From: Narcine bancroftii
Lineage: Eukaryota
Length of the DNA stretch: 64,000 bases
NCBI RefSeq assembly: GCF_036971445.1
Contig: NC_091476.1
Span: 165,044,001 to 165,108,000 of the forward strand
Direction of reading: 5' to 3'
The notes beneath the pieces were generated by a model. It ran no database searches. It had not been told where the DNA came from and saw nothing but the letters and a program-made list of their open reading frames with translations. Both the position numbers and the translations under genes were made by a program. Of the stretch, positions 21,401 through 42,563 are shown one piece after another (position 1 is the stretch's first letter; the number at the start of each line of letters is the position of its first letter).

Positions 21401-21959
21401 ACTAAGCCATCACAAGTTCAGGAAAATTTCTTTTTTTTCTTTAAAAAGCGACAAATAAAGCTTTCTACTACCACTATAAAGTTGGCAGAAATAGGTGTTA
21501 CAAAAAAAATCAGACCAAAACTAGTGTTTGAATGCTCTCACCCTTTAAACAGTACACAAAATCACAAGTCAGAATATGGTTGCAAACAGAATGGGATCTT
21601 AAGACTGAAAGGTACATGACATTTATGACAGTTAACATGGGAACATGAATGGATCATCAGTTATCTTGTAAAGCTTCAGCATTATTCTTACTTTTAGATT
21701 TGTCTTCTCAGAATGGATAGTAATATTACATTAGTCTTCTGTAACACCAATTCAACCTGCAAGCTAAGAGCAGCAAATCTCAACTTTTTTGGCTATGGCC
21801 CTGAGGACTCTGCTCAATTTATGGGGAAGTAGTGAAGCTTTGGTTTCTTCTGTACTTCTCTCCTGCTTACTACATTAAAATAATTGTTACACGAGATGAA
21901 AAAAACTTTTACATAATGCGCTATGCCCCCCCCTCCCCCCATTGAGAATGGCTGATCCA

Positions 21960-22345
21960 GTCAACTGTGCATTAGAACATCCAAGACCATTTCAATCTCT
22001 GGTTTTGGAATTCTCTTCCCGTTTAGTCTGCCTTTATTTTTTTGTGCATGACCATACACTTCCCTACACTATTTCATCTGTCACTTTCATAGCTAGTCTT
22101 CCAATCTGGAAACTTCGCTTCCTCAATACCACCTGCCACTCTACTTATCTTTGTATTGTCTGCAAATGTAAACATAAAGCCATCATCGAAAAATCACTGA
22201 TATTGTGCAAAACAGACCCATCATTGACCCCTACAGGACACCAGCAACCAGAAATGGCTCCCTTTATTCCAACTCTGCCTTCATGCCAGCCAATTTTCTG
22301 TCCACACTTGCACCTTACCTGGAATATCATGGGGTCTTATCTTGT
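21960..22345 (-). mobile_element. CR1-like RT fragment
   Basis: Minus-strand GAISGCWCPVGVN.GSVL...HLQTIQR is a frameshifted SGVPQGSVLG...FADDTK region. Confidence 0.6.
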
Positions 22346-23164
22346 TTATCAACCTCCTACTTCACACCTTCAGCTTACCAAGCACCTTCCTGTATTAATG
22401 ACATTATTTCTGCCCAAACTCTTGATTTGTGGGCATATCTGGATATGGGCAAAATGTAGGCAAATTGTTTGGAACTGACAAATTGGGCCAAATGATCAGT
22501 TTCCATGCTGTTAAACTCTACAAATGATGGATGAGAATTTGATGGCATACACTTAAAATTTCAAGAAATATTGTGGACAATGAAAGCATTCTGTGAGACC
22601 CAACTTTGAGCAATAGATAGACTGGATGGCAAAGAAACTATTGGCATAATTAGCGAATAGTAATATGTACACCTTCCAATTTTTTGCAAATTGCATGAAC
22701 ATACAGGCACTAATTAGGAACCCTAAATGTTTATTGCCAGAAAATGAATGGAAAAATAAGAGGTCATGTCCCAGTTATTCTTCTTGGAGATATTAACGTA
22801 TTAGAGGCAATTTGGAGAACACTGAAAATAGTTGGATTGAGGCAGTCATCTTACAACATTGGACACCAGGATATATTTTGTAGAGTTAAAAAATAAATCA
22901 TAAAACAACAATTAAAACAAGATCAAAAAGAGCCTCAATATTACCATGCACAAACTGAAGCATGGCCAATAAATTGGACTACTCCAATAAATTTGATTAT
23001 AGTTACCTGGAAAAATAAGGCAAGCACCATTCTAAAATCAACCATTCTGACCAAGACAAGGCTTCTTGATTTTTTTTAAACAGCTCTTTCAGTATCATAC
23101 ATGTGTTCTTCAAAGCAACAGCCCAAGTTGCATCTCATATCCCCACAAAAGAACACAATTTTGA

Positions 23165-23255
23165 ACACAAATCTTAGTGACTTTATTTACATTGACAAAA
23201 ATAAATGGGTGTCATGAAATGAGGTTGTGATTCGGGCAATCCTCCATCCAAGATC
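23165..23255 (-). terminator. Candidate distal terminal exon with poly(A) signal
   Basis: Long pyrimidine tract tttatttctttaattctcctcag|GATC; AATAAA on minus at 23182-23187; downstream GU-rich TTGTGTTCTTTTGTGGGG. Confidence 0.6.
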
Positions 23256-24236
23256 CTGAGGAGAATTAAAGAAATAAAATTAGTCTTGCTGAAAATCTGT
23301 TCATTTCAAATAGTCCAATGTATTCATGCCATCACAAAATTTCCCATTGTAGCAGGTTTGTCTGATGTCAGTGCTGAGATGGTTTTGGTACCGATCAATC
23401 TTTTGTGACAGATGAATAACCCAAACAGAAATTTGCCTTAGGTCTGTAAGTTAACCACCCAGTTCGGGTATCTCACTGTCTTAAGGTCACATGATGAAGC
23501 ACAACTGCAGCCCGTGCAACTGAAAATAGGCAGTGAATGTGAATCTCTGCAATTGTTGTTATATTGCAAGGCACATTTTGTAGCATTGCCATGTACGCTT
23601 GACCTTGATGCTGATTCCAAGAGATCTGAAAAAATGAATTATCTGCCAACATTGTGACCCTCCATTGTCTTGCACATGATAGGTAGCCCACCATCTACGG
23701 AATGTACCCAACTCTTCAATTCATATTTGCCCAAGCAAATGAATCCAGCCATCTAGCTCTTTACTGCAGATCATAGCCCAGTCTCAGGAGGTATTCAATT
23801 GATTAAACTGGACATCTAAGATCAAGGATGTAAATTACCTAAGTGGTTGCAAAAGTTCTGGTTCCAGCTGATAGTAAAGTATGATACTTGACATCATGCG
23901 AAACTCACTGTTCAATCTCAACACCAGCAAACCTTTTGGGTACACATGGATTTTTGGGCAGTTCCATCCAAATGCTGCCATCGTTACTGACTACTGAAAA
24001 ATTAAGTGCTAACTACAACATCTTTTATAGCATTTTCAAGCTGTTATTTTCATAGTTCAACAATATTCTGTTCTCAAGGTGCAGACCAATAAAAATGCTA
24101 AGACACGAATGTATTAAAATTGGATACCAACTGAAAATACAAGTCTTAAATTTGGAAGGATTCCCAGACAGGCACCTACTTTGACAAAAAAATCATTGAT
24201 TATTGGTCTTCAACATCCTCCGTTTTATATACTTAC

Positions 24237-24302
24237 CCCTCTTCATGACGTGTAATGACTGACCAGATGTTAAATAGTCTGGTATGTGGCTTTACACAGA
24301 AT
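24237..24302 (-). other. Candidate distal non-coding exon of SFPQ, 66 nt
   Basis: gctttcttttttcag|ATTCTG...GAGGG|gtaagt; near-consensus splice sites. Confidence 0.6.
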
Positions 24303-25251
24303 CTGAAAAAAGAAAGCATAAATCAGCACAAGCTTGTATCATTATAAACTGGTTTCTTAACGGAGTAGGCTACACTGACAAGGTGCATTGTGTTCATCAA
24401 TAGATACATTAGTCAGCGCTTATGAGCTAACAGACTTAGAATCAGAAGAGTGTTCACCTGCAAAGGCAGACGCAACAACCTACTTGTGCCTAGTGACATA
24501 CATTTAATTGAAAAAAAATCTAATAGGCCTTTTTAGACAACAAGCTCAAAAATTCTGATGTCATCAATACACCTTGGAATGTGGGATGGATCTACAGGAC
24601 CCAGAGGAAACCTGCATAGACACAAGGATAACACAAGAACCCCTTGCAGCATTGTTCCAACCAAAATGTGCTACACTTTTTAGGAATAAATCAGTAAATC
24701 AAAGGTCTACCCAACATGACAAACTAATTGCCCATGGGATGCATTTAGTTCTGGTCACCACTGCTCAGGAAAGATATGATGGCAAGGATGCAGCCAGGGT
24801 TGCAGAATCTTAAATTGAGTTTGACTTCTCAGGGGAAGCTTTCAAGTTGATTTTTTTTTTCTCCACCCAGACAGAGGCAGTGAGAAGTAACCAAAAACAT
24901 ACACTAATGGGTTACAAAGTGCCATAACCAAAAAGGTGAATGCATCGATAGAGGAGACTGCTGGTTAACTGGAGAACATAAAGCTGTGGAAGAACTCAAA
25001 CTGCAGAAAGCAAAAGTTTCGGGGCTCTTTTAAACTTCCATGGATGCTGCCTGATCTGCTGGGTTCCTCTAGGGTGAATGAGATAGCTGGTTTCCAGGTA
25101 AGATTCCTCAGGAAAGGACTAAGGTCCAAATAACTGTTCCCTGCCATTGTGCAAATGAAAAATACCTTATCTTCTAGCTTCAAATATACTACAAAACTTA
25201 AAATGTGATCAAGTCTATTCCAGAATATTTTAGAACTTAGCAGTTACTTAC

Positions 25252-25304
25252 CAGTATTTTAATATACCAGTAGCCTGTCAACGTGCATCAAGCTCTTTCC
25301 ATGC
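25252..25304 (-). other. Candidate distal non-coding/poison exon of SFPQ, 53 nt
   Basis: gtgttctctttag|GCATGG...ATACTG|gtaagt; reads AWKELDAR* if joined to exon 8. Confidence 0.6.
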
Positions 25305-28300
25305 CTAAAGAGAACACATTAAGTTAGTAAGAGCTTAATGCCAGCTGATACATTGATAAATCTGCTCAGATCACATTACATTGGAAAACTGCCATACAAA
25401 TACAGCCCAAATGTAGATCTGGTATACAAAAGTTGACCAAATTCCCCGGTAGCCTCAGTGCCACTGTTTCCACAGTAGCACCCATTGACTAATATTTATG
25501 GGGAAAGAACAAGTAAACTTGAAAGAGGTTACAACTGATGTGCATCAGAAAGCACTTGTGTACTTTGTACTGACTTGCCTACATAGGCCGACAGAAAGGA
25601 GCAAAGCAAGAATTTATGCTTTAAGCCAAGCTTCACTTAGGCAATTATGGCACTCGGAACAGGGTTAAAACTACTCAAATTAAAAATTTTAAGTTTGAAC
25701 AGGCCAAATAAGATTGACCAAACTAGCACAAAAATAAATGCCTAATCAGGCAAGTGTAAGGGAAGTTACACTCATCTCAGAAATGATTCCAACCTCATTT
25801 ACAACACTAATAGATACCAAATATCCCTATTATGTATGTTCTGGCATCACTCTCCTGCACAGAGGCTCAAAATATTGTAGCCAAATTGAACTGAAAAAGC
25901 TCAGTCTTAGAGAATAATTGAGATGGAATACAGTGCAGACACTTAGCTATCTATTTTCAGAACCCCAAAGTCCAGTGTAATGAATTGATCCATGATTTCA
26001 GCTCTAGGGACAAGCCAGAAATTGCTTTTTACAGAAAGCATACTTCATTGCTCATTCTAAAGAGGCAATAATTTCTTTGACTAAGTATGTCTTCCAAATA
26101 TAGAATACAAATGTGATCAACACTTCAGCTTCAATATTGCATAGTGTTAATCTTGTTGTCAGCTTGTTAATCAATTAAACCAAATCAAGATTGCACTCGA
26201 GAATACTGCAGATGACTCTTGTGTCAAAATCCCAGCATTGCAACAGGATAACCACCATAAAATGGTCAAAGAACAGAACAATGTCAAGGACCATGACAAT
26301 ATTTACATCTTCTGCCCTAATCTTAAAACATTCTTCACAGCAACTTCACCCAAACAATCTAAGCAGTCAAGTCCAACATACCACCATGATCACCAAGTGT
26401 TTTCCTCTAGATGGTTTCAAGGATGTGAAGTTTGCAGAGATAAACTTAACAGAAAACTAATGACTATATCAACCCCAATACTGATCATATGTGATCCATA
26501 AGATTGGAGCACATCACTTCATCTCTTAATGAATTGACAAGCAAGCCATTTGCTGATCAACAGTCTCAAAGAAAGCAAACCCAAAATACTGTGATTTGGC
26601 CAAGGCCCATTCCAGTTATGTAATTAATTTTAATGAGTAGTCAGATGCCAAAAGGGCAAATACTTGGTTACCAAGTCCAAGGAAGATGCAAGAATTTCCT
26701 ACCAAAATTAATAAACTACTTTTCAGTACGTAGTATCAGATGCAGTATAAATCAGTTGAAGTAATGAATGACATTTACAGAAATTATACTTGCCATATAC
26801 AACAGGCAAGTATTGTTAAAAATTCTGCCAAACTTGTAACGGATCTTCCTACATTCAAATACATGGTCTGGTCTTAGGATCTCTGGCCAGATAGTCCAAT
26901 GATCAAGACAGATTGTAGTTAGTCATTACAAAGCTGACTTGGTAAAAGGCAAAAACCACATCTGGGCTATACTAAACATTACAGGAGATAAACCAAGTAC
27001 AATCAAGAGGTGCAAACATTCATGGTACAGGGATCTGACAGAGGCTCATCATGAGCAAGCTGATTAAATTGCCACAATTCCAAATTCAGTTGGCAGATCA
27101 AGCTGCCATTCCCTTCACAATTGCAGGCAATTGCACACCCACCCCTTCCCTTTTCCAAACCCCAAACATTATTACAAGTGTCATTCCAGTTATGGCAATA
27201 AGTGGCCTACAGCACATGTACTTGTTGATCATGCTGCTTTATTTATGGTCTTGGCAAAACTCAAGGCAGGTGCAGTGTTTAGAAAAAGATATGTTGAATA
27301 GATAAGCTACAACATTCCTATTTGAAGTCCACATCACATATCCAAATATACAATTGAAGACAGAAGGTACATCTACCTCTTAGTTGATGATCCACAGACA
27401 CACTGAGATCTTAATGCTGTGGTACAACAGTATTTCAAAGCTGCACTAGTAGCTGTACATCACTTGGCCTGTAATGCATCATTGATACTAGTCAGCAATG
27501 AATGCTAATAGTCCAACCGCTTAAAGTGCTGCACTGTAATCACACTGTCAGAAGGGTGATGCCTGAACCATTTCACTGACTTAAGAAATTACGAAAGACA
27601 TTTTAACAAGTTATTTGTACATACCTGTATGCAGTCTGTACTGTGTACCGCAGAACAAGCAGGAATACTATTCTCCAGGTCTTACTGCCCAATCCCATTT
27701 GCAGTACTACAGATCCTCAATGTAATGTATTGCAGACAAGCTGACTGTATTTATTCGCTGGAGAGTGGCATTACTTGCAATGTTGCAGCATAATTGGCTG
27801 CCAGCAGCCACTTGCTGGCTTGTAACTCAGATGCGTTGCCATGTGACCTGAGAATCTGAAACTGTTACAACTTCCACTGAAGAATACTGTACTGGGGAAG
27901 ACAAGTTATTTTAATTTGTTCCCAGACTTGATGGGCATTGCAAAAATGAGCACCTGAAGACCAAAAAGGCAACTGAACTTTCCTTGTTTTCAGATTAACT
28001 GATACATTAACCAAGTTCAAAAATAGACAAGAAAAAAAATGTAAGCAAACCTTTCAGCCAAAGTAACTTTGCTCCAATTAAAAAAAGGGATTCACTAAAA
28101 ATATATTGCGACCAAATGCACAAGTTGTGGCATCAAAAAAATTAAAAGGGTTTTCAAAAAATTTCCAAGCTCTGTTTACACCACCTAAAGAACTGAAAAT
28201 TCCCCAATAGATTCACAAAAGCCCCTAGTTACATGTAATATACCAAACCACATCGACCAAGTTACCATAAAGATTTGAAAAGATAGAAACCTAATTATCA

Positions 28301-28805
28301 AACCCATCTAAATATACCAAAACCCATGTTCAAATGCAGCAATGTTAAGGGAAGAGAAATAAAGTTACTGAAAGCCTGTAAAAGGTACTAAACAGCAAGC
28401 CAGAGCAGTTATTCATTTAAATCCACAAGCTGATTGCAGTCACTTACAGGGTTATTTGGAAAGGGTTCAAATTATCCACACTTTGGTATCAACTACATTG
28501 CATACCCTGGGATTCCACCACCCCACCTTCCTCCCCCTCCCCCCACCCCACCCACACCATTTTCAAATTGAAGTCAGAATTACTTTAAACCTAGTTGCAA
28601 CTCCCAGAATTTTGATTAAAAATATCCAATTTTGGACTGAAGCTTATGCTCAGAAATAGCAAATCAATGATTAAGCTTGGTTGCCCCTCACGAGTAAACT
28701 GCATCTACGGCCTAGTTGGACCATGTAAAAAGTGTACAGGTGTATTTGGTTAAATGTTCAAACATGCCCCACCACCCATCCCCACAAATAAGTTTTAACA
28801 CTTAC

Positions 28806-28891
28806 CATTATCTCAATGCTAAACAGCAATTATTTGTTGGCACAGCATGTTACTGCTTGGTTTCCAGTTACCCATTGAAGCTCTTCAGCTT
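28806..28891 (-). other. Candidate distal non-coding/poison exon of SFPQ, 86 nt
   Basis: cttctatatcttctgcctatag|AAGCTG...ATAATG|gtaagt; reads KLKSFNG* if joined to exon 8. Confidence 0.45.
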
Positions 28892-31297
28892 CTATAGGCA
28901 GAAGATATAGAAGTCACGTTCTGGTAGTCCTGGTATCCTGTGGCAAATTCATTCTTATGAGCAGATCTGCACCTCCCAGATCTTGCTACCGGATTCCAAT
29001 TATTGAAATTTTCCAATTAGTCATTCACGATGGAAGAGGACCAACTTTTCAATCAATAACTGAGGTGAAACCTTCATAAGTTAATAGTTGGTCCCACATT
29101 AGGTCAGTAGATTAAAAGGCTTTCTGGATCATTAACTGGAGATCTTTTGGAGAATATCTTTCACCAGATGAAATTCAATAAAACTGAAAATCAGCTGAGA
29201 CTTTAGAACTCCACCTTTCAGATCCTGTCTCAGTTTCACAGCAAACCCATATGGTAGAACTTTAATATCTACATACACAACAAAAAAAATTCTCCAAAGT
29301 CCAAAATTCCACAAAATAGTCCAGTGCTGTTGTTGATGTAATAAGTCCAAAGATGAAAGTATGTGCATCAATACCAGTAACTCTCGTGTTTACTAAATCT
29401 TGTGCACATTATTTTTGCACTTTTTACTGCATTTACTTCAATACACATTTCTATCATTGCTCGTTCCAAAATCCCAACTTGAGAGCTGGGACACCGGTGG
29501 CCCCAATTTCTGTCTCCTACAAGACCAATAAATTGGTTTACAAGCCTAATACTACAAAGTAACTACTTATTTACGCAGGAAACAGAAATTTGGTTTCATT
29601 GCAGTTTTGAGTTATCATAACCTCTGTGGTTTTGCACAACTAGACAGCCAATGCCATTTGGCATCAAGTCATACAGTGACTTGCACTATGAACTGATTTC
29701 ATTAAGTGGACCAGAAATGACAGTGGGGCAGGCCAAGTTGTGGCTAAATGAAATTTTATAAACCCAACTCAAAATACAAGAGGAATAAATGTTATGATTA
29801 AGGTGTACAATCAAAAACAGTGATGCAATTGGCATTGCCCAAAATATCAGCAACCCCAGAGCTTCTGCTTTAACTCGACAGGTGACATTTGAAGATCCAG
29901 AAATCAGATATCAAATTGCAGGAAAGCAGAGTTTGTTAAAATAAAGGTTAAAAAAAACCCTACCACACCTAGAGTGGAAATAAAACAAAAATCAATTTCC
30001 CAAACCATGGATGAAGCCCAGCATCACAAAATTCAATGCCTAAAAATCAGTGAGCCCAGAATAAGGAGCTTCAACATTTAGCAATGTCAACCAACCTAGT
30101 TGGATCTTAGCCAATAGATTGTTTCCATGGGGCAAAGAAATTGTCAGCTTGGGTGCACAGTTGCTGCATCAAACCAGCTTTAATGGATAGCACTGAAGGT
30201 AAAACCAATTTGTCTCCAAGGTCAGATCTTCACAATCTAGGTTCACTCTGAATTATGCAGAGCTGGCCACCATAGGTTCTCAAATTTAATCTTCAGACTA
30301 GCAAATTAAAAGAAGTTAAAATAAAATTGTGCTTAGCATTAATATAAACATTTAACATCATATGCACCAGCTGCAGCAACACCTTCCTTCACTCCCAATA
30401 TGGGAAAACATACATATCTAAAAATGTAGTTGCCAAACCAGACTCTTGGATGCCAGTGGACTTCACTGCCACACCTGACTGAATGTGCTTGCAAGTATCA
30501 GGGAAGGAAAAACCCCTTTTAGAACAATGTTCAGTCCAACTTTATCCAAAACTAAATCCACAAAAGAACAAAGAATCCCTTTTGAAAGTTTGCATGAAAT
30601 CTAATTGGATGACGATTTGTATTTATGACTAAAAGTTTCAAGACCTGACTGTCTATTGTGCAGTGAAGCAAAACACTACTTGGCTCTTTGGCCGACTGCA
30701 AATTAAATCAAAATTCAGATATCAGGCTGAAAAAAACCTCACTACTTAAAACCACACAATTGTGAATTGTGTTTTCAGTGCAATTCTATTCCCTTCAAAT
30801 AATTATCTTCACAATTGACTGAGATAAGTGGCACAGAGTTTGCAGTAGTCAGCAATACCTGTTCCACTTATGAAAGCTGAGATCTTGTTCTTTGTTAATA
30901 ACAACTCATTTCAAATTAGCACTACGAATGAGTTTTAATTTAAAAAGATGACCAAAATACAGAATTCCACCATTTCAAAACAAGCATTTAGCCTGCACAA
31001 TTAAACATGCTTCTACAATGACTCAAAGAAATACATGAAGCATACTTTCTAGAGGTTTAATGGCACTTCAGTGTACAGTTGAAGTACTGGAAAAAGATGC
31101 CTATTTGCACTTTCACTTGCTTGACATAATTCAACATTCACAATGTGCCAGTGTGAACTGTTACAGTTTACAAAGTTTAGTCAATACACAAATCTGAATA
31201 GGCATAAAATGCAACTTTGCCACCAACTAAAAAACGCAATTATGAAGAGCTCTCATCTAAATGACTATCTGGAATGCACACTAAAGGGCTACAAAGT

Positions 31298-31432
31298 TTA
31301 GTATCTAGGCTTCTTATTAGCCGTTTCATATTCTTCTCTCCCTCTACTAAAATTGGGACCAGTAGGCCCCATAGGACGTGGGGGCTGAGTATTCATTGGA
31401 CCTGGGGCTCCCTGTCCAAAGCGGTCATTACG
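31298..31432 (-). CDS. SFPQ: SFPQ last coding exon 9 including stop codon, 135 nt
   Basis: Acceptor aatag|CGT; translates RNDRFGQGAPGPMNTQPPRPMGPTGPNFSRGREEYETANKKPRY*. The C-terminal NKKPR(Y/F) NLS is typical of SFPQ. Confidence 0.95.
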   Translation of the reverse strand, partial: RNDRFGQGAPGPMNTQPPRPMGPTGPNFSRGREEYETANKKPRY

Positions 31433-31434
31433 CT

Positions 31435-31675
31435 ATTGGAAGTTCATCACACATGGTAGCAATCAAAGTCCATACAAGTTGAACATTACAAAGTGAGGAA
31501 AATGTGTAACATTTAGATCAGGGAAGGCATCCGTAGTCAACGTTCGTCGATTACAACCAGGAATGGGGCGATCCACAGGTACCAGGCACATAAAAAGGAA
31601 AAAAAGAGGGCAAGTTGTTCATTAGTTTACCGACCGGCACATGGAGGAATCCATGGTGGGTATAATCCTCCCATG
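31435..31675 (-). promoter_or_regulatory. Distant branch point, polypyrimidine tract and AG-exclusion zone upstream of the last SFPQ coding exon
   Basis: No AG dinucleotide on the minus strand from 31667 to 31435. ACTAAT at 31626-31621 is followed by a U/C tract at about 31612-31581. Confidence 0.75.
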
Positions 31676-33723
31676 ATTTATGACAGCTTAAGAACAATGG
31701 CTATTCTGCTTTAGTGCAAACAAACCACTTTAACAATAAAGGAATGCAGTGCAATACGCACAAAATGTGGGCTTTTAGCTGTTCATCACTGTTGCAATCT
31801 CCACAATGAATGTCAGAGATGCAGATTTTTAACACTTCAAGTTAAATAGCCACTGGCCTTAATCGAAGTCACAAATTACCACCGACTTATTCCCACCCAT
31901 TTCCCTTTTAACAATCTGACTAACGCGCCAGTATTGTAGTACTGAATAGTTACTGAATGGAAATAATTTTGGTCCAGTAAAATATCTGTTATCACCATTA
32001 AGTCATGATAGGCCAAGTTTCTGACTTAAATAGAAAAATATCCGATCAGATGCCTTTACAGTTTAAAGGAGCGATGTTGTAGAAATTTTAATGTACAAAA
32101 TTTTAGACTGCAAACTACAATCACAGTACAGCACAAGTACTACAACACTGGATCATCATTACCATCAAGGATTACCTGAGAAAAATACTGCAAAGGAATC
32201 CACTATTAGAAGTCCATAATTATCAGGTCATTTCCCTCAGTTTTTTTTATGCCTTGCCAAATTTACCACTTGCACAGAACTCAACCATTTGGAGGATAAG
32301 GCAAGCAAGTAAGCCATGACCCAAGGCATACTGTTGTGTTAAGAGGACAAGCATAGCCTCTTTCAATTTACTTCATAGATCAATGTCTCTGCAGCCTAAC
32401 TGCAGCATATACTGCCAATATAATTACCCAGTACAAGATCAGAGATTTGAAAAATTTCTCAAACAGAAAACCAATGATTCAACCATTTGGAATTGGATTG
32501 GACATTCAGGATCAACAGTCTCACATTATGAATATCACCTCTACTCACCCCATCTTGCCACATGACCCATTTTTTCACTTAAGTATTAAGTCTGTCTTCT
32601 GCACCCTTTCACTGTACCAGACCAAAAGGTCAGGATCAGCAATGTTAAGATGCAGGGAAATTGTATTTATTAGCTGCTGCAGTTGAACAATCACAGGAGC
32701 CATGGGATAGCCTATTTCCTCCTGTGCTACAATTTCTGACCATATAACTGGTCATTAAAATACAAGGATTTCTGCACTTTCTAACAAAATACATCCACAC
32801 TAATTTCAATATTGCAGTTTGTTATATACTGGAAGAATGTGCTTGATATTTATGTATGTAACAGCAGCTACAAATGCCAGAACATTTGGACAGGAAAGTA
32901 TCAATTTCCTATGGAACAAAAACCAAACTGATTTGACTGTATAGACAATCAGCCTTCTGTATCAGAACAATTGCAACCTTATCACTTGGAATCGCCAAAA
33001 TATCCCACTAGCCAATCTGAAGTTACGATGGAACATTATCATTCTTGGCATGAATACAAGTAGTTCACTGTTATTTCACCCCCCCAACCCCCCACCAAAA
33101 ACAATTAGAAAAATTGAAACCCACCCAGTTTTCCTGCAAACCTAATTTCCTCACAAAGCCTTGGCCCCAAGCACACAATCCTACATTCTGATTCTATTAA
33201 CTCACAACTTTGGTAATCCAGTTAGTGAAACACTTGTTTAAATGCATTTCAACTGGGTTAAATTCACAATCTTCTGCCTTATAATCACACGGATTGCAAT
33301 CGAACTTACAAGCAGTAATGACTACCCTATAAACGTTTGGCGCAGCCAAACTTGAGCAGTGACATGGCAATTAGATCCTGTGATCAAGGAGCAAAACTGT
33401 TTAATATCAACTCCTGTAAATATATTAACATGTCACAATATATGTACTTTTCAGAAAGTTGAATCCACTCCCATGCCAAGTCCACACTAATTATTCAGCT
33501 CCTACAATGGCCTTATTCAAGCGGTTTCTAAGTTTGCCGTTTTGTGCTTTGTTTCAATAGCATCAAGCTAAGCAGATGAACTACACAAAAGGACATTTGT
33601 TCATACTGCAGAAAATCCATTACAGTCATCTCTTTGTTATTTTTATACCACTACCCTCACACATTCCGTTCTACAGCCAGATCATACATTCAAGCATTCA
33701 CTCTTAACTACAGTATGCTTTAC

Positions 33724-33869
33724 CCCTGCCATGTCGCTGGTGTTTGCGCTGGTGCTCATCATCTGTCCAGTCATCGCACTAGGTCCTCCAGGACTACTCA
33801 ATGCACTGTGACCTTCATAGGCCATTGCTGCCATTGGTGGAAAACTTTGGTTTGCAGTTGTATATTGTT
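33724..33869 (-). CDS. SFPQ: SFPQ coding exon 8 (C-terminal low-complexity region), 146 nt
   Basis: Acceptor tttcag|AA; translates EQYTTANQSFPPMAAMAYEGH...MMSTSANTSDMAG; donor GGG|GTAAAG. Resembles the human ...KFPP...YE...SDM exon. Confidence 0.88.
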
Positions 33870-34489
33870 CTGAAATTCAAGAATGAGGATTCAACAATAG
33901 AAACTAAATTTAAAAAGTGTCGATCATATTTACACAATACAAAATATGCTAAATTCTTCACAAGGAATATTCATCACTATTAGGCTACAATCAGGAAGAA
34001 TATACAGGAATCAAATTAAAAAATATCAGAAGAGTCCAAAGACAACTGAAAATCAATTGGGACAGAAATTAGAAGTTCCCAAAAGAAAATGTTTTTCTAC
34101 AAGTTTCAGTCTCAGAACTTTCAAATGCACAAGATCAACACATTTTGAAGTCTTGTACCCTACAAGATAGAATCAGTTCAAACAAGTTTTATCCTTTTAA
34201 ACCTGAAAATGACTGAAGTACCCAGCATCTATTCCACTAAACCAGTTTCCATTGCCAAGTTACTGATCCAATATTTGTTTCAATTAAGTACCCAAGACAT
34301 CAAAACAAAAGTCACCCCTTCAAACAACTGACAACCTCAAGAGTGGACTACTTCTGTATTTTAATAGTTTGATCCTTGACAATACTTGCCTTTACTGTTG
34401 TCATAAAGAGAAAAAAATACATTCATCTCATCATTTCAGCAAATATAACCAGACTCATAACCTCCTTCAAGCTGATGATTGACGTTTGA

Positions 34490-35590
34490 ATCACAACCAC
34501 TTGGACAGCCCCAACTCAGAGGTCAGAATGCTGTTCATTGACTTAGTTCAGCATTCAGTACTGTGATTGCCTCCAAGCTAATCGCCAGAATTCGCCATCT
34601 CATCCTTCTGAAACTGGACCTTGACTTTCTGACTAACAGACCCTTATCTATTAAGTTAGACAACCTCTCCATTCTCACCCTGAGGGCTGTGGCTGAGCCT
34701 TGTTCTGTACTTCCTTTTTACCTATTACTGTATTCCTGTGCATGGTTTTAACTCCATAATAGTTTCCTGACACCACCATTTAGTTGGCTGATCAGAGGGG
34801 AACGATGAGACAGCTGACAAGGATGAGATACAGCACCTGACCATGTGGTGTGCTAATAATCACCCACCCTTTAACACCCAGATAACCAAGGAGATCAAAG
34901 TGGACTTCAGCCATGCTGGGAGCCACATTCATGCCCAAATCTACACCAATGGAACTGTAGTGGAACATGATTCAAGCTTCAATTCAAATTCCTTGGTGCC
35001 CATATTTCCAATGATCTCACGTGGCCCTTGAACTCCTCCATCCTGATCAAAAAGGTGCCACAGCGGATTTCCTGCAGAGCATCAAGAAAGCTCACATTAG
35101 TCCCAGGATACTGCTGTACCTTAGAGCATACCCATCAATGGCATCTCAGTGTGGTATGGGAACAGTCCCATTATTTGATCACAAAGCACTCCCATGGGTG
35201 GCGAAATCTACCCAACAGATTATTGGCACCCAATTCCTCACCATTGAGAGCATTTATCAGAAACTCTGCCAGTGCAGGGCAAAAAGCATCATCAGGGATG
35301 CCTCTCACCCTGTGAACTTTTTAAACTCTCCTTCCATCTGATAGGTGATACAGGATCCTCCACTCTCAAACCTGCAGAAGTTTTCTGAACTGTGACCCTT
35401 ACATCTTACCGCTGAGCAGTATTGTACCCACATTGTACTGTCAGTACTTTTATACTTGTCCGTTTGCTTTTATTTGCAGTTACTTGTAAATAGTACTATT
35501 CTTTATACTTCCGGTTAGATGCTAATTGCATTTCATTGGCTTTGTATCTGTACTTGGCACAGTGACAATACAGTTGAATCTAAAATCTAA
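34490..35590 (+). mobile_element. Rex/Babar-like LINE fragment in SFPQ intron 7 (antisense to the gene)
   Basis: VRMLFID.SSAF.T, WC.NN...N...TKE..VDF, A.SII.D.SHP; 3' tail GACAATACAGTTGAATC. Confidence 0.75.
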
Positions 35591-35995
35591 TCCAGTATTG
35601 TACAAAACAACTTCATGTAACTATTCCACAATATCAATTTGTACCTCAGTCTTCCATCTGACAACATTCCATTAAACAACTCTGTCCAGCATTTCAGGTT
35701 AAGTACATTGAACTATGGAGTTGCCACTACATTTATCTTGCCATCATTTACAAAATAGTCTGTTCATAGGTCAGATTTGACCACGCTGCGGTCAAAGCAA
35801 CCCATGACATTTGCATCCCCAATTTACAAAGAGCATATAACTGTGAACCTGTCAATTTGAGTACCTGACTATTTCTGGTCACCTGGACCTCAGCAAACAA
35901 CCAAGTAACATTAATAATTAAAATTAGGCTAATCAGGATTACTGAAACCATAAATTTACAAATATCCAGAATTTTCCAAAAGACCTGCATTTTAC

Positions 35996-36032
35996 CTGTC
36001 ATTCCTCCAGCCATACGCATTTCGCGTTCTCT
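35996..36032 (-). CDS. SFPQ: SFPQ coding exon 7 (small exon), 37 nt
   Basis: Acceptor ttttttttccag|AGA; translates REREMRMAGGMT; donor AG|GTAAAA; keeps phase with neighbouring exons. Confidence 0.9.
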
Positions 36033-36619
36033 CTGGAAAAAAAAGTGATAATAGAAAATGTAATATGAAGAGGTGACCAGGCCAAGTCCAACTGAATTTT
36101 AAGTAAGCTCATTTCTGCAATATTAACCTGCTATATACCCAAATTTACAACAGCCCAATAAAACAAAACAATGGAAAATATAAGTTACACGAGTCTCTAC
36201 AAGTCTCAACTTGACACCAATTTCTACCCAAATTGCATTGAAATATTTAAAATACACGGGTAAAACTTTTAATTGACATGCAACAGCTGCACAAAAAAAT
36301 GGTATTTGCATATCAAACAAATTAGATACATGGGACCTAATGGAAAATACTTTTCAATGTGTTAGAGGAAAGTTAAAAATGCATTGAAGGAGAAATTAAA
36401 GTTGGACTCAACAAAGTTACAGTAATGAGAAAAATCTCAATCGCCAAGAGACCAAAAGTACAAACAGAAAATTTCAAAGCTGTTCAACAAAAAAGTGCTG
36501 GAGAAACTAAGTTATGCAATATTCTATTCAGGCACTTCTTGCTCGTTTCCAATATCTCTATGAAAGGCTCAGTAATGAAACATTGGTTATATATCTGTAA
36601 AACAAATAATACAGCACTG

Positions 36620-37990
36620 TACATGCCTTTTGGCCCTCGATGTTGTACCAATCCATATCCCCAAGTACTAAACCCTCCCTAATCCATTATTTTTCTTTCA
36701 TCCATATGTCTAAAGTCTCTTAAATGTCCCCTATCATCCCTGGGGTACCAGCAACCACAACTCAAAAACTTATCCCCGACGTCTCACCTAAACTTCCCTC
36801 CCTTAACTTGATCCTCTGGTATTTGCTGATCCTGCCCGAGTAAATAGATCCTATCTGTCCACTCTTCTATGCCTCTCAATCTTGTAGACCTCTATCAAGA
36901 CTCCTCTCATCCTTCTACACTCCAAAATAAAGTCCTAGCTCTGCTAACCTTGTCTCATAAGATGCATTGCCTGGATTAGGAAATATCTTGGTAAATCTCC
37001 TCTGTACCTTCTCCATCGCTTTCACATCCTTTTTTGTGAGGTAACCAGAACCGAACACAATGTGGTCACACCAAAGATTTGTCGAGTTGTAACATGACTT
37101 CTACTCCTGAATTCTATCTCCCCATTAATGAATCCAAGCATCCCATAGGCCTTCTTAACTATCCCATCAACCTGTGCGGTGACCTTGAGGGGTACAGGGA
37201 TTGGCACCCCATGGTCCCTCTTTTCATCCACATTTTCTTAAGTAACTGAACATTAACTCCGTAGTCAGCCCCCTGGTTAGTCCTTCCAAAATGCATCACT
37301 TCACTTTTCCAGATTGAAATCCATCTGCCACTTATAACCTTCAACAACCTCCAGCCCCATCTACAACTCCTTCAAACTTCATGTCACCTGCAAACTTACT
37401 GACCCATCTCTCTGGCTCTTCACCCAAGTCATTTAGAAATATCACAGAGCAGCAAAGCCATGTTATCCTTGAGTAAACCACACTTCTCCAAATGCTCACA
37501 GATCCTATCCTTTAAAACTCACTGGCCTTTCATTCCCAGGATTCTTCCCAATACTTTTTTTAAAAAGAGGGAACTACATTTGTTATTGTCTAATCCTCCA
37601 ACACTTCCCTTGTGGCCAAGGATCATAGGTATTGCCCTAGCTGTCTCTTCTCACTTCCCACAGCAGCCTGGGGTATATTTGGCCCTAGGGACTTATCAAT
37701 CTTGGAATGTTTTTAAACAGATCCAACACTTGTGCTTCCCTAATCTCCACATTGTCCAGCACACAGGACTCTTCAATTTAAACCTCACCGTGATTTGAGG
37801 TCCTTTTCATTTAGGACCTCCCCAGCTTCAAGGCATGTTGCCACCCTTATCCTTTATTGGCCCCACCTCTTTTCATCATCCTTCTGTTGTTCACATTTGC
37901 ATAAAATGCATTGGGGCTTTCCTTAATTCTACATGCCAAGGCCTTCTCATGACCCTTTCCAGCTCTCCTAAATCCTTTCTTAAGCTTCTT
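36620..37990 (-). mobile_element. CR1-like LINE fragments in SFPQ intron 6
   Basis: KSEVMHFGRTN, LKVTAQVDGIVKKAYGMLGFINGEIEFRSR, KRAKRGHEKALA.RIKE.P.AFY-like segments. Confidence 0.8.
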
Positions 37991-40790: not shown

Positions 40791-41693
40791 CTAAAGGGGG
40801 GAAAAAAAAAAACAGTATTTTGTTGGATCTGCCAAAAAATATTTGTACCAACCAAAAATTGCTCAGGAAGCATGCAAACTTGAAGGATATTTGCGGTTCA
40901 ATTTGTCGATTTCGGGAGCTGTACAACATTCCCACCTCCTCCTCAGATTTTTTTTTGAAGCTAACGTTCCAAAGGGAAAGACGTCGGGGAACTCCTGGTG
41001 GGCCGCTTACCAGACTAATTAGATGCACCCAGTGGGACAACAGATGCCTCACATCTCCAAGCAGGCAGGCAGGGCCCGACGCCAGGACTGGATTTCAGAT
41101 TTAGGGAGGCTACTTCCCCCTCACCTCTGCCATCAGACTTCTGACTGAGCACCGAAGCTAACCTCCCTTGAGCCCTCCTTCTTGCCCGTCCTTGTATTGA
41201 AATGCAGCTTAAAGAAACATTTGTCCGGCGATGCCCAAAAGCAGACGCTCAAGGCAGTAAATCTACGAAATCTTTAACGAAAACGAGGCCAAAAGAATAC
41301 TGACATTCTCAATTTGGAGGAAATTGATTACTCACTTGATGCATATGGGTTGGATTCTTATGCTAGATTCACACTGCGGCTCGTCTACGAGGATTGAGTA
41401 TGTGCAATACAAACTTGACGTCATGCTTTCATCCTGATAGAATTGAATCAACTTCGAGGTGGAGATTTAATTCGCCACGATGGTCGAATTGTGTGATTTT
41501 AAATGCAGGTGCATTGAGGGAGAACCGTTGACAATAAATGGAGGGGCGGCAAGGTCCTGAGGGGCTTGTGCCCACGTCACGTCTTTCCCGACATGCAAAT
41601 CCGAGGGCTCCCGCCGCCGTCCCTCAGGGTACGTTCAGGCGCGGGCGTGGCTCCAATTGCGTGCAAGGACGCGACGCGCCCGAGGCCGGAGTG

Positions 41694-41906
41694 GCCGGGG
41701 GGACGGGCGCGCGCGGGGCGGTCGGGGGGACGGGCGCGCGCGGGGCGGTCGGGGGGCCGGGCGCGCGCGGGGCGGCCGGGGGGCCGGGCGCGCGCGGGGC
41801 GGCCGGGGGGCCGGGCGCGCGCGGGGCGGCCGGGGGGCCGGGCGCGCGCGGGGCGGCCGGGGGGACGGGCGCGCGCGGGGCGGCCGGGGGGACGGGCGCG
41901 CGCGCG
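41694..41906 (+). repeat. GC-rich minisatellite, 27-bp unit x ~8, in SFPQ intron 1
   Basis: GGGCGCGCGCGGGGCGG(C/T)CGGGGGG(A/C)C recurs every 27 bp from 41705 to 41894. Confidence 0.95.
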
Positions 41907-41945
41907 CTCCGCCCGCCACCGCTAGGCGGCCCGGGCCGCACTCAC

Positions 41946-42563
41946 CAGGCGGATGAAGCCGAAGCCCTTGCCCTTGTTGATGAACACCTCGCCCGGCTCG
42001 CCGTACTTGTCGAAGAGCTTCTTGAAGTCGTCCTCCGTGATGTCGCCCGGCAGGTTGCCGACGAAGAGGCGGCACCGCTGCGTGTACGTCTTCTCGCCCG
42101 GCTTGCGGAGCAGCGAGAGCTGGGCCCGCAGCACCTCCTGCGCCTGGCGCAGGTCGCTCTCGCTGGGCTTGGAGTCGCGCGGCTGCCGGCCCGGGCCCTC
42201 GGCGGCGCCCGCGTACGGCGGCTTGCCCTCGCCGCCGCCGCCGCCGCCGCTCCCCCCGCCGCCTCTGGCCGCCCCCGGCGCCTGAGCGGCCGCCGCGTCG
42301 CCGTTTTTCTTGTCGGGCTCCTGCGACTTCTGAGAGGCCGGCGCCGCCGACTTGGGAGGCGGGGGCTGTGCCGGAGAGGCCGCCTGGCCCTGCGCCGAGG
42401 GCGCCGGCTGCTGCTTGAGGGCCTCGGCCGGGTTTCCCGCCCCGTTGGGGCGGTTGGGGATGTTGTTGCGGTTGACGCCGCCGCCGCCGCCGCCGCGGAA
42501 AGGAGGGCTCATCCCGCCGCGCCTCTGGAATCCGGAGCGGTTCCTGAAGCGATCCCGAGACAT
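41946..42563 (-). CDS. SFPQ: SFPQ coding exon 1 (RGG/Pro-Gln-rich N-terminal region and start of RRM1), 618 nt
   Basis: Translates [12 protein letters not shown]...[53 protein letters not shown]. The MSRDRFR start is characteristic of SFPQ. Ends at donor CTG|GTGAGT, phase 0. Confidence 0.96.

Follow-up and report, generated by a model that had tools for sequence, protein, structure and literature searches.

Why does the intron ahead of the last coding exon of an electric ray gene run for 233 nt up to its 3' splice site with no AG, and does this stretch help to decide which ending the transcript receives? The question arises from a window of 64,000 nt of Narcine bancroftii DNA (the whole stretch that was analyzed; contig NC_091476.1, positions 165,044,001 to 165,108,000), in which a sequence-only reading named the gene SFPQ and proposed that a distant branch point chooses between the productive last exon, intron retention and skipping to distal exons. 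Positions below are those of the window, the gene lies on its minus strand, and negative numbers count upstream from the 3' splice site.

Nine minus-strand exons join into a frame of 576 residues with no internal stop. Coding exon 1 (41946..42563) is 100% identical to the SFPQ-like isoform X2 protein of N. bancroftii, the next 14 matches of the same search being from sharks, rays, and a chimaera, and exon 2, in the RRM and NOPS region typical of this DBHS family, scores 184.6 bits for SFPQ compared to 169.4 for NONO and 165 for PSPC1. Judged by these matches and by an SFPQ-type C terminus, the gene is SFPQ, and the AG-free zone does lie before its last coding exon as had been read. All chondrichthyan matches have a short low-complexity part at the N terminus, and ray coding exon 1 presumably spans what in human is divided into exons 1 and 2. 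The upstream exon (33724..33869, equivalent to human exon 9) supplies a donor common to the near and the distal acceptor. It is followed by a GT..AG intron of 2291 nt (31433..33723, equivalent to human intron 9) and by the last coding exon, whose coding part (31298..31432, equivalent to human exon 10) ends in KKPRY and a stop codon and by homology would carry the C-terminal nuclear localization signal. A candidate GC donor 6 nt inside exon 9 was dropped, since the joint uses the GT at 33723. The proximal 3' untranslated region at 31154-31284 is nearly identical in one of the aligned runs, X18 (2 other letters, 2 gaps), and sequence giving the impression of decayed LINE fragments lies in intron 8 (34500-37900) and downstream of the gene (21900-22500).

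Which of the endings are used? Four contig runs out of 24 listed were aligned to 23100-33950 with a likeness threshold of 80: X3 (organism A), X5 (B), X18 (D), and X24 (L). No run is on record as RNA; spliced GT..AG joints show spliced RNA in at least three of the four. In X3, X5, and X18, the joint 31432-33724 excises exactly the 2291-nt intron, the shorter flank measuring 29 letters, so the acceptor of the last coding exon is used. In X5, which comes from a relative, exon 9 is also joined to a distal exon at 25304. The same donor makes both joints in this run; hence one donor serves two acceptors in a relative, and the downstream exon is alternatively spliced there. Among the 15 joints listed, the distal joint occurs in one of the four runs and not for N. 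bancroftii itself. Joints 25252-24302 and 24237-23255, present in X3 and X5, carry the distal chain onward: the first distal exon (25252..25304) encodes an 8-residue tail with its stop at 25280-25278, the second (24237..24302) is untranslated, and the third (23182..23255) runs up to an AATAAA at 23187. The stop codon of this form lies 26 nt before the first junction and 92 nt before the second. A stop more than 50 to 55 nt upstream of a later junction marks a transcript for nonsense-mediated decay (NMD), and the ray distal chain is thus predicted to have an NMD layout. Short tails of this kind recur in annotation models: of 120 listed proteins, 22 end about 6 to 8 residues straight after the end of exon 9, and one of these, from a chimaera, has a tail of 8 residues. 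The acceptor of the first distal exon is compact and ordinary, with a TACTAAC whose A lies at −20 and an AG-free run of 27 nt.

Contigs covering the whole 2291-nt intron occur in all four runs; pre-mRNA or DNA would look alike, and contigs of other introns are likewise present. Among the outcomes that the earlier reading named, skipping to distal exons is seen in one relative's contigs and all three are published for human; retention in the ray is at most putative. In the 6 kb that separate the last coding exon from the distal chain, many pieces (25300-29200) reach at least 80% likeness in X18 and X24, for example 25738-26017, 27349-28147, and, immediately ahead of the distal acceptor, 25276-25519. 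At 25035-25072, many loose ends in all four runs point to a likely piece of dispersed repeat.

A direct scan confirms the absence of AG on the minus strand from 31667 to 31435 (zone 31435..31667), 233 nt in a window where the mean AG spacing is 16.6 nt. The zone is bounded upstream by the AG at 31669-31668 and downstream by the acceptor AG at 31434-31433, and AG density is normal beyond its upstream edge, with AGs at −237, −256, −270, and −275. AG is the sole dinucleotide of the 16 that is missing from it. When the 2291-nt intron is dinucleotide-shuffled 2000 times, an AG-free run of at least 233 nt never arises (mean longest run, 90; maximum, 194), and base shuffles of the zone itself come out free of AG in 2 of 100000 trials, with a mean of 9.0 AGs. 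At the other seven coding-exon acceptors of the gene, the AG-free runs measure 28 to 57 nt. The zone sequence is nonrepetitive, with no simple-repeat origin, and holds 7 CpG dinucleotides compared to 16 in the remaining 2056 nt of the intron. Only one AG-free run on the minus strand of the window is longer, 254 nt at 41651-41907, and it is caused by a GC-rich tandem repeat (about 21 nt) with which intron 1 begins (41690-41910).

Where in this zone would the branch point lie? The earlier reading placed it about 190 nt from the 3' splice site, and an ACTAAT is indeed found at 31626-31621 on the minus strand with its A, 31622, at −190, inside the branch-site 10-mer GTAAACTAAT (31621..31630). ACTAAY motifs are not rare by themselves (57 matches in the window versus 70 expected). 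Directly after the branch site comes a polypyrimidine tract (31584..31613, −181..−152) that is 87% pyrimidine. At the 3' splice site (31429..31441, AG at 31434-31433), the local tract is weak as had been described, the final 23 nt of the intron being 48% pyrimidine. The main tract had also been called the only strong one; its strength holds, but a second, moderate pyrimidine stretch lies at about −78 to −50 (15 of 20 versus 19 of 20 in the main tract). The zone further contains three YTRAY branch-like motifs: TTGAC with its A at 31537 (−105), CTGAT with its A at 31518 (−86), and TTGAT with its A at 31463 (−31). Exons with distant branch points, as defined by Gooding in 2006, call for an AG-free zone of 100 to 150 nt or more; in the ray it measures 233 nt and lies directly before a used acceptor. 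A branch consensus with an adjacent tract near the 5' end of the zone likewise belongs to this class and is seen here (CTAAT at −190, tract at −181..−152). Together with the human mapping described below, motif, tract, and zone suggest that the ray spliceosome very probably branches at A 31622.

How well is the element kept in other species? X18 differs from the ray by 13 letters and 1 gap over 31404-31728 (325 nt), and X24 differs by 7 letters and 2 gaps over 31410-31712 (303 nt), compared to 17 to 34 other letters per 152 to 175 nt in the other intron pieces listed. Of the intron pieces listed, those covering the zone are the least changed in both distant relatives. X3, a single run, has another letter at 31541, inside an otherwise shared 22-mer, and this change creates no AG. 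Upstream of the zone, a second conserved intronic block (31813-31982) is 87 to 89% alike in X18 and X24, and a weaker one is present in X24 at 32803-32977.

The human orthologue is entry IDB1147464.9055 of the AG-exclusion list in supplementary file 2 of Gooding 2006 (PMC1431707), which gives a zone of 183 nt, AGs at −185, −202, and −213, a tract at −154..−128, and a branch candidate at −163; in supplementary file 1 of that paper, as far as its text was available, no SFPQ entry was found. Compared by eye with this entry, the ray 10-mer (31630-31621) is identical, 23 of 27 aligned bases of the tract match, and a conserved block past the tract (31530..31583) holds a 15-mer (31583-31569) and a 22-mer (31551-31530) that are both identical to human. 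Over the core, which extends from the branch 10-mer through the 22-mer, comparison by eye gives about 84 matching columns out of 101, and a stretch of 13 nt spanning the acceptor junction is likewise the same as in human. The spacer between (31435..31529) is 23 nt longer in the ray and by eye mostly unalignable, yet it is free of AG in both species, which is what scanning from a distant branch point predicts. Conservation in another vertebrate, on which the earlier reading depended, therefore holds for human, with a CTAAT-type branch 10-mer, tract, blocks, and AG-free spacer in common. The lines leading to electric rays and to human split roughly 450 million years ago, and the distant-branch-point layout likely goes back to early jawed vertebrates. 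An exact 21-nt pattern had 0 matches in metagenome contigs.

Is the homologous adenosine used in human cells? Published lariat tables bear on this through the donor chr1:35652601, which matches the hg38 boundary of exon 9 once the assembly offset is applied. For this donor, and with their score taken as read support, File S1 of Pineda and Bradley 2018 (PMC5959240) pairs position 35650357 with a score of 64 and 35650358 with a score of 3, besides 35650339 (2), 35650338 (2), 35650331 (3), and 35643659 (4, far downstream). The five positions near exon 10 total 74, none of them nearer than about −137 among the rows listed, and File S2 gives 35650357 a score of 74 over all donors. In Table S2 of Taggart 2017 (PMC5378181), all six rows listed for the acceptor chr1:35650194 (hg19) are labeled distal (−136, −137, −141, −148, −162, and −171). 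The only A row listed is −162, in the context TA(A)TTTT with the branch base in parentheses, with 4 unique reads and a branch mismatch present; the most-read row is a C at −171 (9 reads, 5 unique) with no mismatch and no motif, and counts are small throughout. Coordinates in the two sources differ by one, as 0- versus 1-based counting would lead one to expect. The lariat context matches the A at −163 in the Gooding entry, which aligns to ray 31622. Among the rows listed, there is no human lariat at −82, the equivalent of ray −105, or nearer to the acceptor, so the lariats at 20 to 40 nt that would have spoken against the earlier reading do not appear in them. The distant branch point is thus supported by human lariats at the homologous A about 163 nt upstream, while none of the 15 joints listed from the ray or a relative is a lariat joint, a kind that contigs rarely keep.

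Could the zone instead be kept as a structured RNA? Folding z-scores do not rise above shuffles (0.69 for the zone, 0.08 to 0.46 for four subregions), and Rfam returns no match in the zone and only a subthreshold mir-1256 match at 25275-25350 (E 0.4). RNA structure was rejected as the main explanation on z-scores of 0.08 to 0.69 and the lack of an Rfam match in the zone. The predicted probability of being unpaired is 0.68 for 31622, compared to 0.10, 0.19, and 0.10 for the internal As at 31537, 31518, and 31463. A predicted hairpin at 31554-31533 on the minus strand, with pair probabilities of 0.84 to 0.91, lies largely within the 22-mer and pairs its internal TTGAC; we hypothesize that such a modeled hairpin may mask internal branch motifs. 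The hairpin sequence is invariant and so offers no covariation, and the X3 letter at 31541 would break its closing pair. At 31567-31558 on the same strand, the ray could form a 3-bp stem with a 4-nt loop whose pair is kept by a double change in human (by eye, and weak), a stem that is absent from the folding program's prediction. The earlier reading also tentatively placed a human ultraconserved element at this position, the class being defined by at least 200 bp without difference among human, mouse, and rat. A preprint does report a UCbase ultraconserved element in human SFPQ near the nonproductive junction, with no exact position in the text available, and the candidate element number had no text match in the literature searched.

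What might the element do? In the established model for the distant-branch-point class, the first splicing step is independent of AG and is followed by scanning for an acceptor. Applied to the ray, U2 would pair at CUAAU (A 31622) and U2AF would sit on the adjacent tract, the first step would proceed independently of AG, and scanning over the next 190 nt would bring the spliceosome to the first AG, which is the near acceptor. A near acceptor that is slow next to a compact distal one could leave room for the three outcomes known in human, and in the ray the distal chain would be predicted to trigger decay. Published observations are consistent with such a role. Branch points at least 100 nt from the acceptor are reported in 22% of switch-like retained introns compared to 4.6% of constitutive introns, distal branch points are tied to late splicing (PMC5378181), and human SFPQ is described as promoting its own NMD form. 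In human, exon 10 carries the C-terminal nuclear localization signal. Pointing the other way, deletion of a distal branch point in the minigenes of Taggart 2017 had little consequence as long as a proximal one was present (PMC5378181). Branch sites of the ACUAA type can be contested by QKI and SF1, in a paper that, in the parts available, does not have SFPQ as a target. Given a correct branch point, we think it likely that the element has a putative causal role in the choice of ending. Our preferred reading, held with somewhat less assurance, is that the zone is the ray orthologue of the distant branch region of human SFPQ intron 9 and tunes competition between the near exon and the distal chain. 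That it decides among the productive exon, retention, and distal skipping, as first proposed, is putative and on balance a little better than evenly supported.

These readings have to be weighed against others. A run that arose by chance would find company in the AG-free runs of 254, 188, and 144 nt elsewhere in the window, but none of the intron shuffles reaches 233 nt, the run terminates exactly at a used acceptor, and the same feature in the human orthologue already refutes this explanation, which we regard as negligible. Nearly as improbable is that the region is conserved for another reason, as a DNA enhancer, a small structured RNA, or a protein platform, with the absence of AG as a side effect. 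The CpG-rich invariant core (7 CpG per 233 nt versus 16 per 2056 nt), the ultraconserved element reported in human SFPQ, and a small hairpin that recurs in centroid folds would suit it; against it, the spacer that has diverged beyond alignment is also AG-free in both ray and human, human lariats map to the zone in the tables available, and neither the z-scores nor Rfam mark out a structure. The zone may still have an additional function beside splicing. It is also improbable, though slightly less so, that the ray branches at one of the internal or proximal motifs (31537, 31518, or 31463) rather than at 31622. Those motifs are present, the Gooding entry gives its highest U2 score to the human counterpart of 31537 (6.55 versus 4.37; PMC1431707), and a moderate pyrimidine tract follows 31518. 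Against this, no listed human lariat lies at the −105 equivalent or nearer, the zone remains AG-free for 130 nt upstream of 31537, and prediction pairs the three internal As and leaves 31622 mostly open.

The main rival is control driven by polyadenylation, or more broadly a distant branch point that is real but merely permissive, the ending being set by which poly(A) site is used after the last exon, by the region around the exon 9 donor, or at the distal acceptor. In human, TDP-43 knockdown is reported to move SFPQ to a distal poly(A) site and a downstream acceptor, SFPQ has been proposed to bind downstream of exon 10, and an antisense oligonucleotide from a panel tiling the exon 9 donor and the distal acceptor raised the alternative form. 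In the ray, the first AATAAA lies 3.5 kb beyond the stop, and nearer to it the only signals are the ATTAAA copies at 31061 and 30939. Weighing against a permissive role, conservation extends about 55 nt past the tract in two blocks identical to human, beyond what a branch site and tract need, the whole zone is kept in relatives, and distal branch points are enriched in retained introns in the published data available. We consider this alternative rather unlikely, and tuning of the competition by the zone remains the reading that we prefer. Poly(A)-type signals lie at 31061, 30939, 27755, 27243, and 23187; having only ATTAAA near the stop could favor read-through to the distal acceptor.

Why would such an element matter? 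SFPQ is a splicing gene linked to ALS. In the portions available, the SFPQ and ALS papers set out a three-way choice at this intron but name no branch point and the branch catalogues list the site with no comment, and the ray joins these two literatures. The word "branch" is absent from the main texts of the three SFPQ isoform-switch papers searched, and in the open literature, with subscription papers outside our scope, we found no link between a branch point and SFPQ regulation. Conservation as far as an electric ray marks which 100 bases matter and so gives exact targets for mutagenesis and antisense work. In human, a variant lying 100 to 200 nt inside intron 9 is predicted to cost the exon with the nuclear signal if it introduces a new AG or alters the branch A. 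A bolder proposal, which we put forward tentatively and consider less likely than not, is that the zone times SFPQ homeostasis in cis, an arrangement already in place before the lines of sharks and bony vertebrates parted, with a distant branch site and an invariant block that hides stronger internal branch motifs. Slowed commitment to the nuclear-signal exon would then let SFPQ (or QKI, as a lead only) divert transcripts to the NMD-coupled distal chain, and the element behind the SFPQ isoform shift in ALS/FTD would lie some 163 nt ahead of exon 10, beyond the stretches covered by the published antisense panel.

The mechanism itself is not new: the class has been known since 2006, and the human site already stands in three supplementary tables. 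Known exons with distant branch points include rat alpha-tropomyosin exon 3 (−175), PTB exon 11 (−351), and GABA-B receptor exon 23 (−275) (PMC1431707). Ray SFPQ has in common with them a long AG-free zone that holds the branch site and its tract toward the 5' end, and a regulated exon downstream. Those exons are internal cassette or mutually exclusive exons, whereas the ray exon is an alternative last exon set against a distal acceptor 6.1 kb further on, and the ray zone is not pyrimidine-rich throughout, unlike the zones of the three. The closest system is the exon 10 zone of human SFPQ, with the same gene, intron, branch 10-mer, tract, 15-mer, 22-mer, and acceptor, a branch candidate near the 5' end of the zone, and dense AGs just upstream of it. 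The two differ in zone length (233 nt in ray versus 183 nt in human), branch position (−190 versus −163), and spacer, and the branch point is mapped in human and inferred in the ray.

The comparison extends to the isoform switch. In human, published accounts describe a switch between wtSFPQ, altSFPQ, and an intron-retained form with autoregulation through NMD (PMC12372870, PMC6547761, PMC12586192, PMC5964114); the "9 kb" given for the retained intron in PMC5964114 refers to the long intron that reaches the distal exon rather than to the 2.4-kb intron alone. PMC12372870, in the text available, assigns the origin of the two further distal exons to mammals and suggests that in other animals the alternative transcript is stable. 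The ray likewise has two further distal exons, which may or may not be homologous to the mammalian ones. The two introns that follow the stop in its distal chain speak against the idea that nonmammals make the alternative form from a stable transcript. Overall, the ray gene has the layout of the human switch: a single donor, a near exon bearing the C-terminal signal, a distal exon that adds a short tail, and two more exons beyond it.
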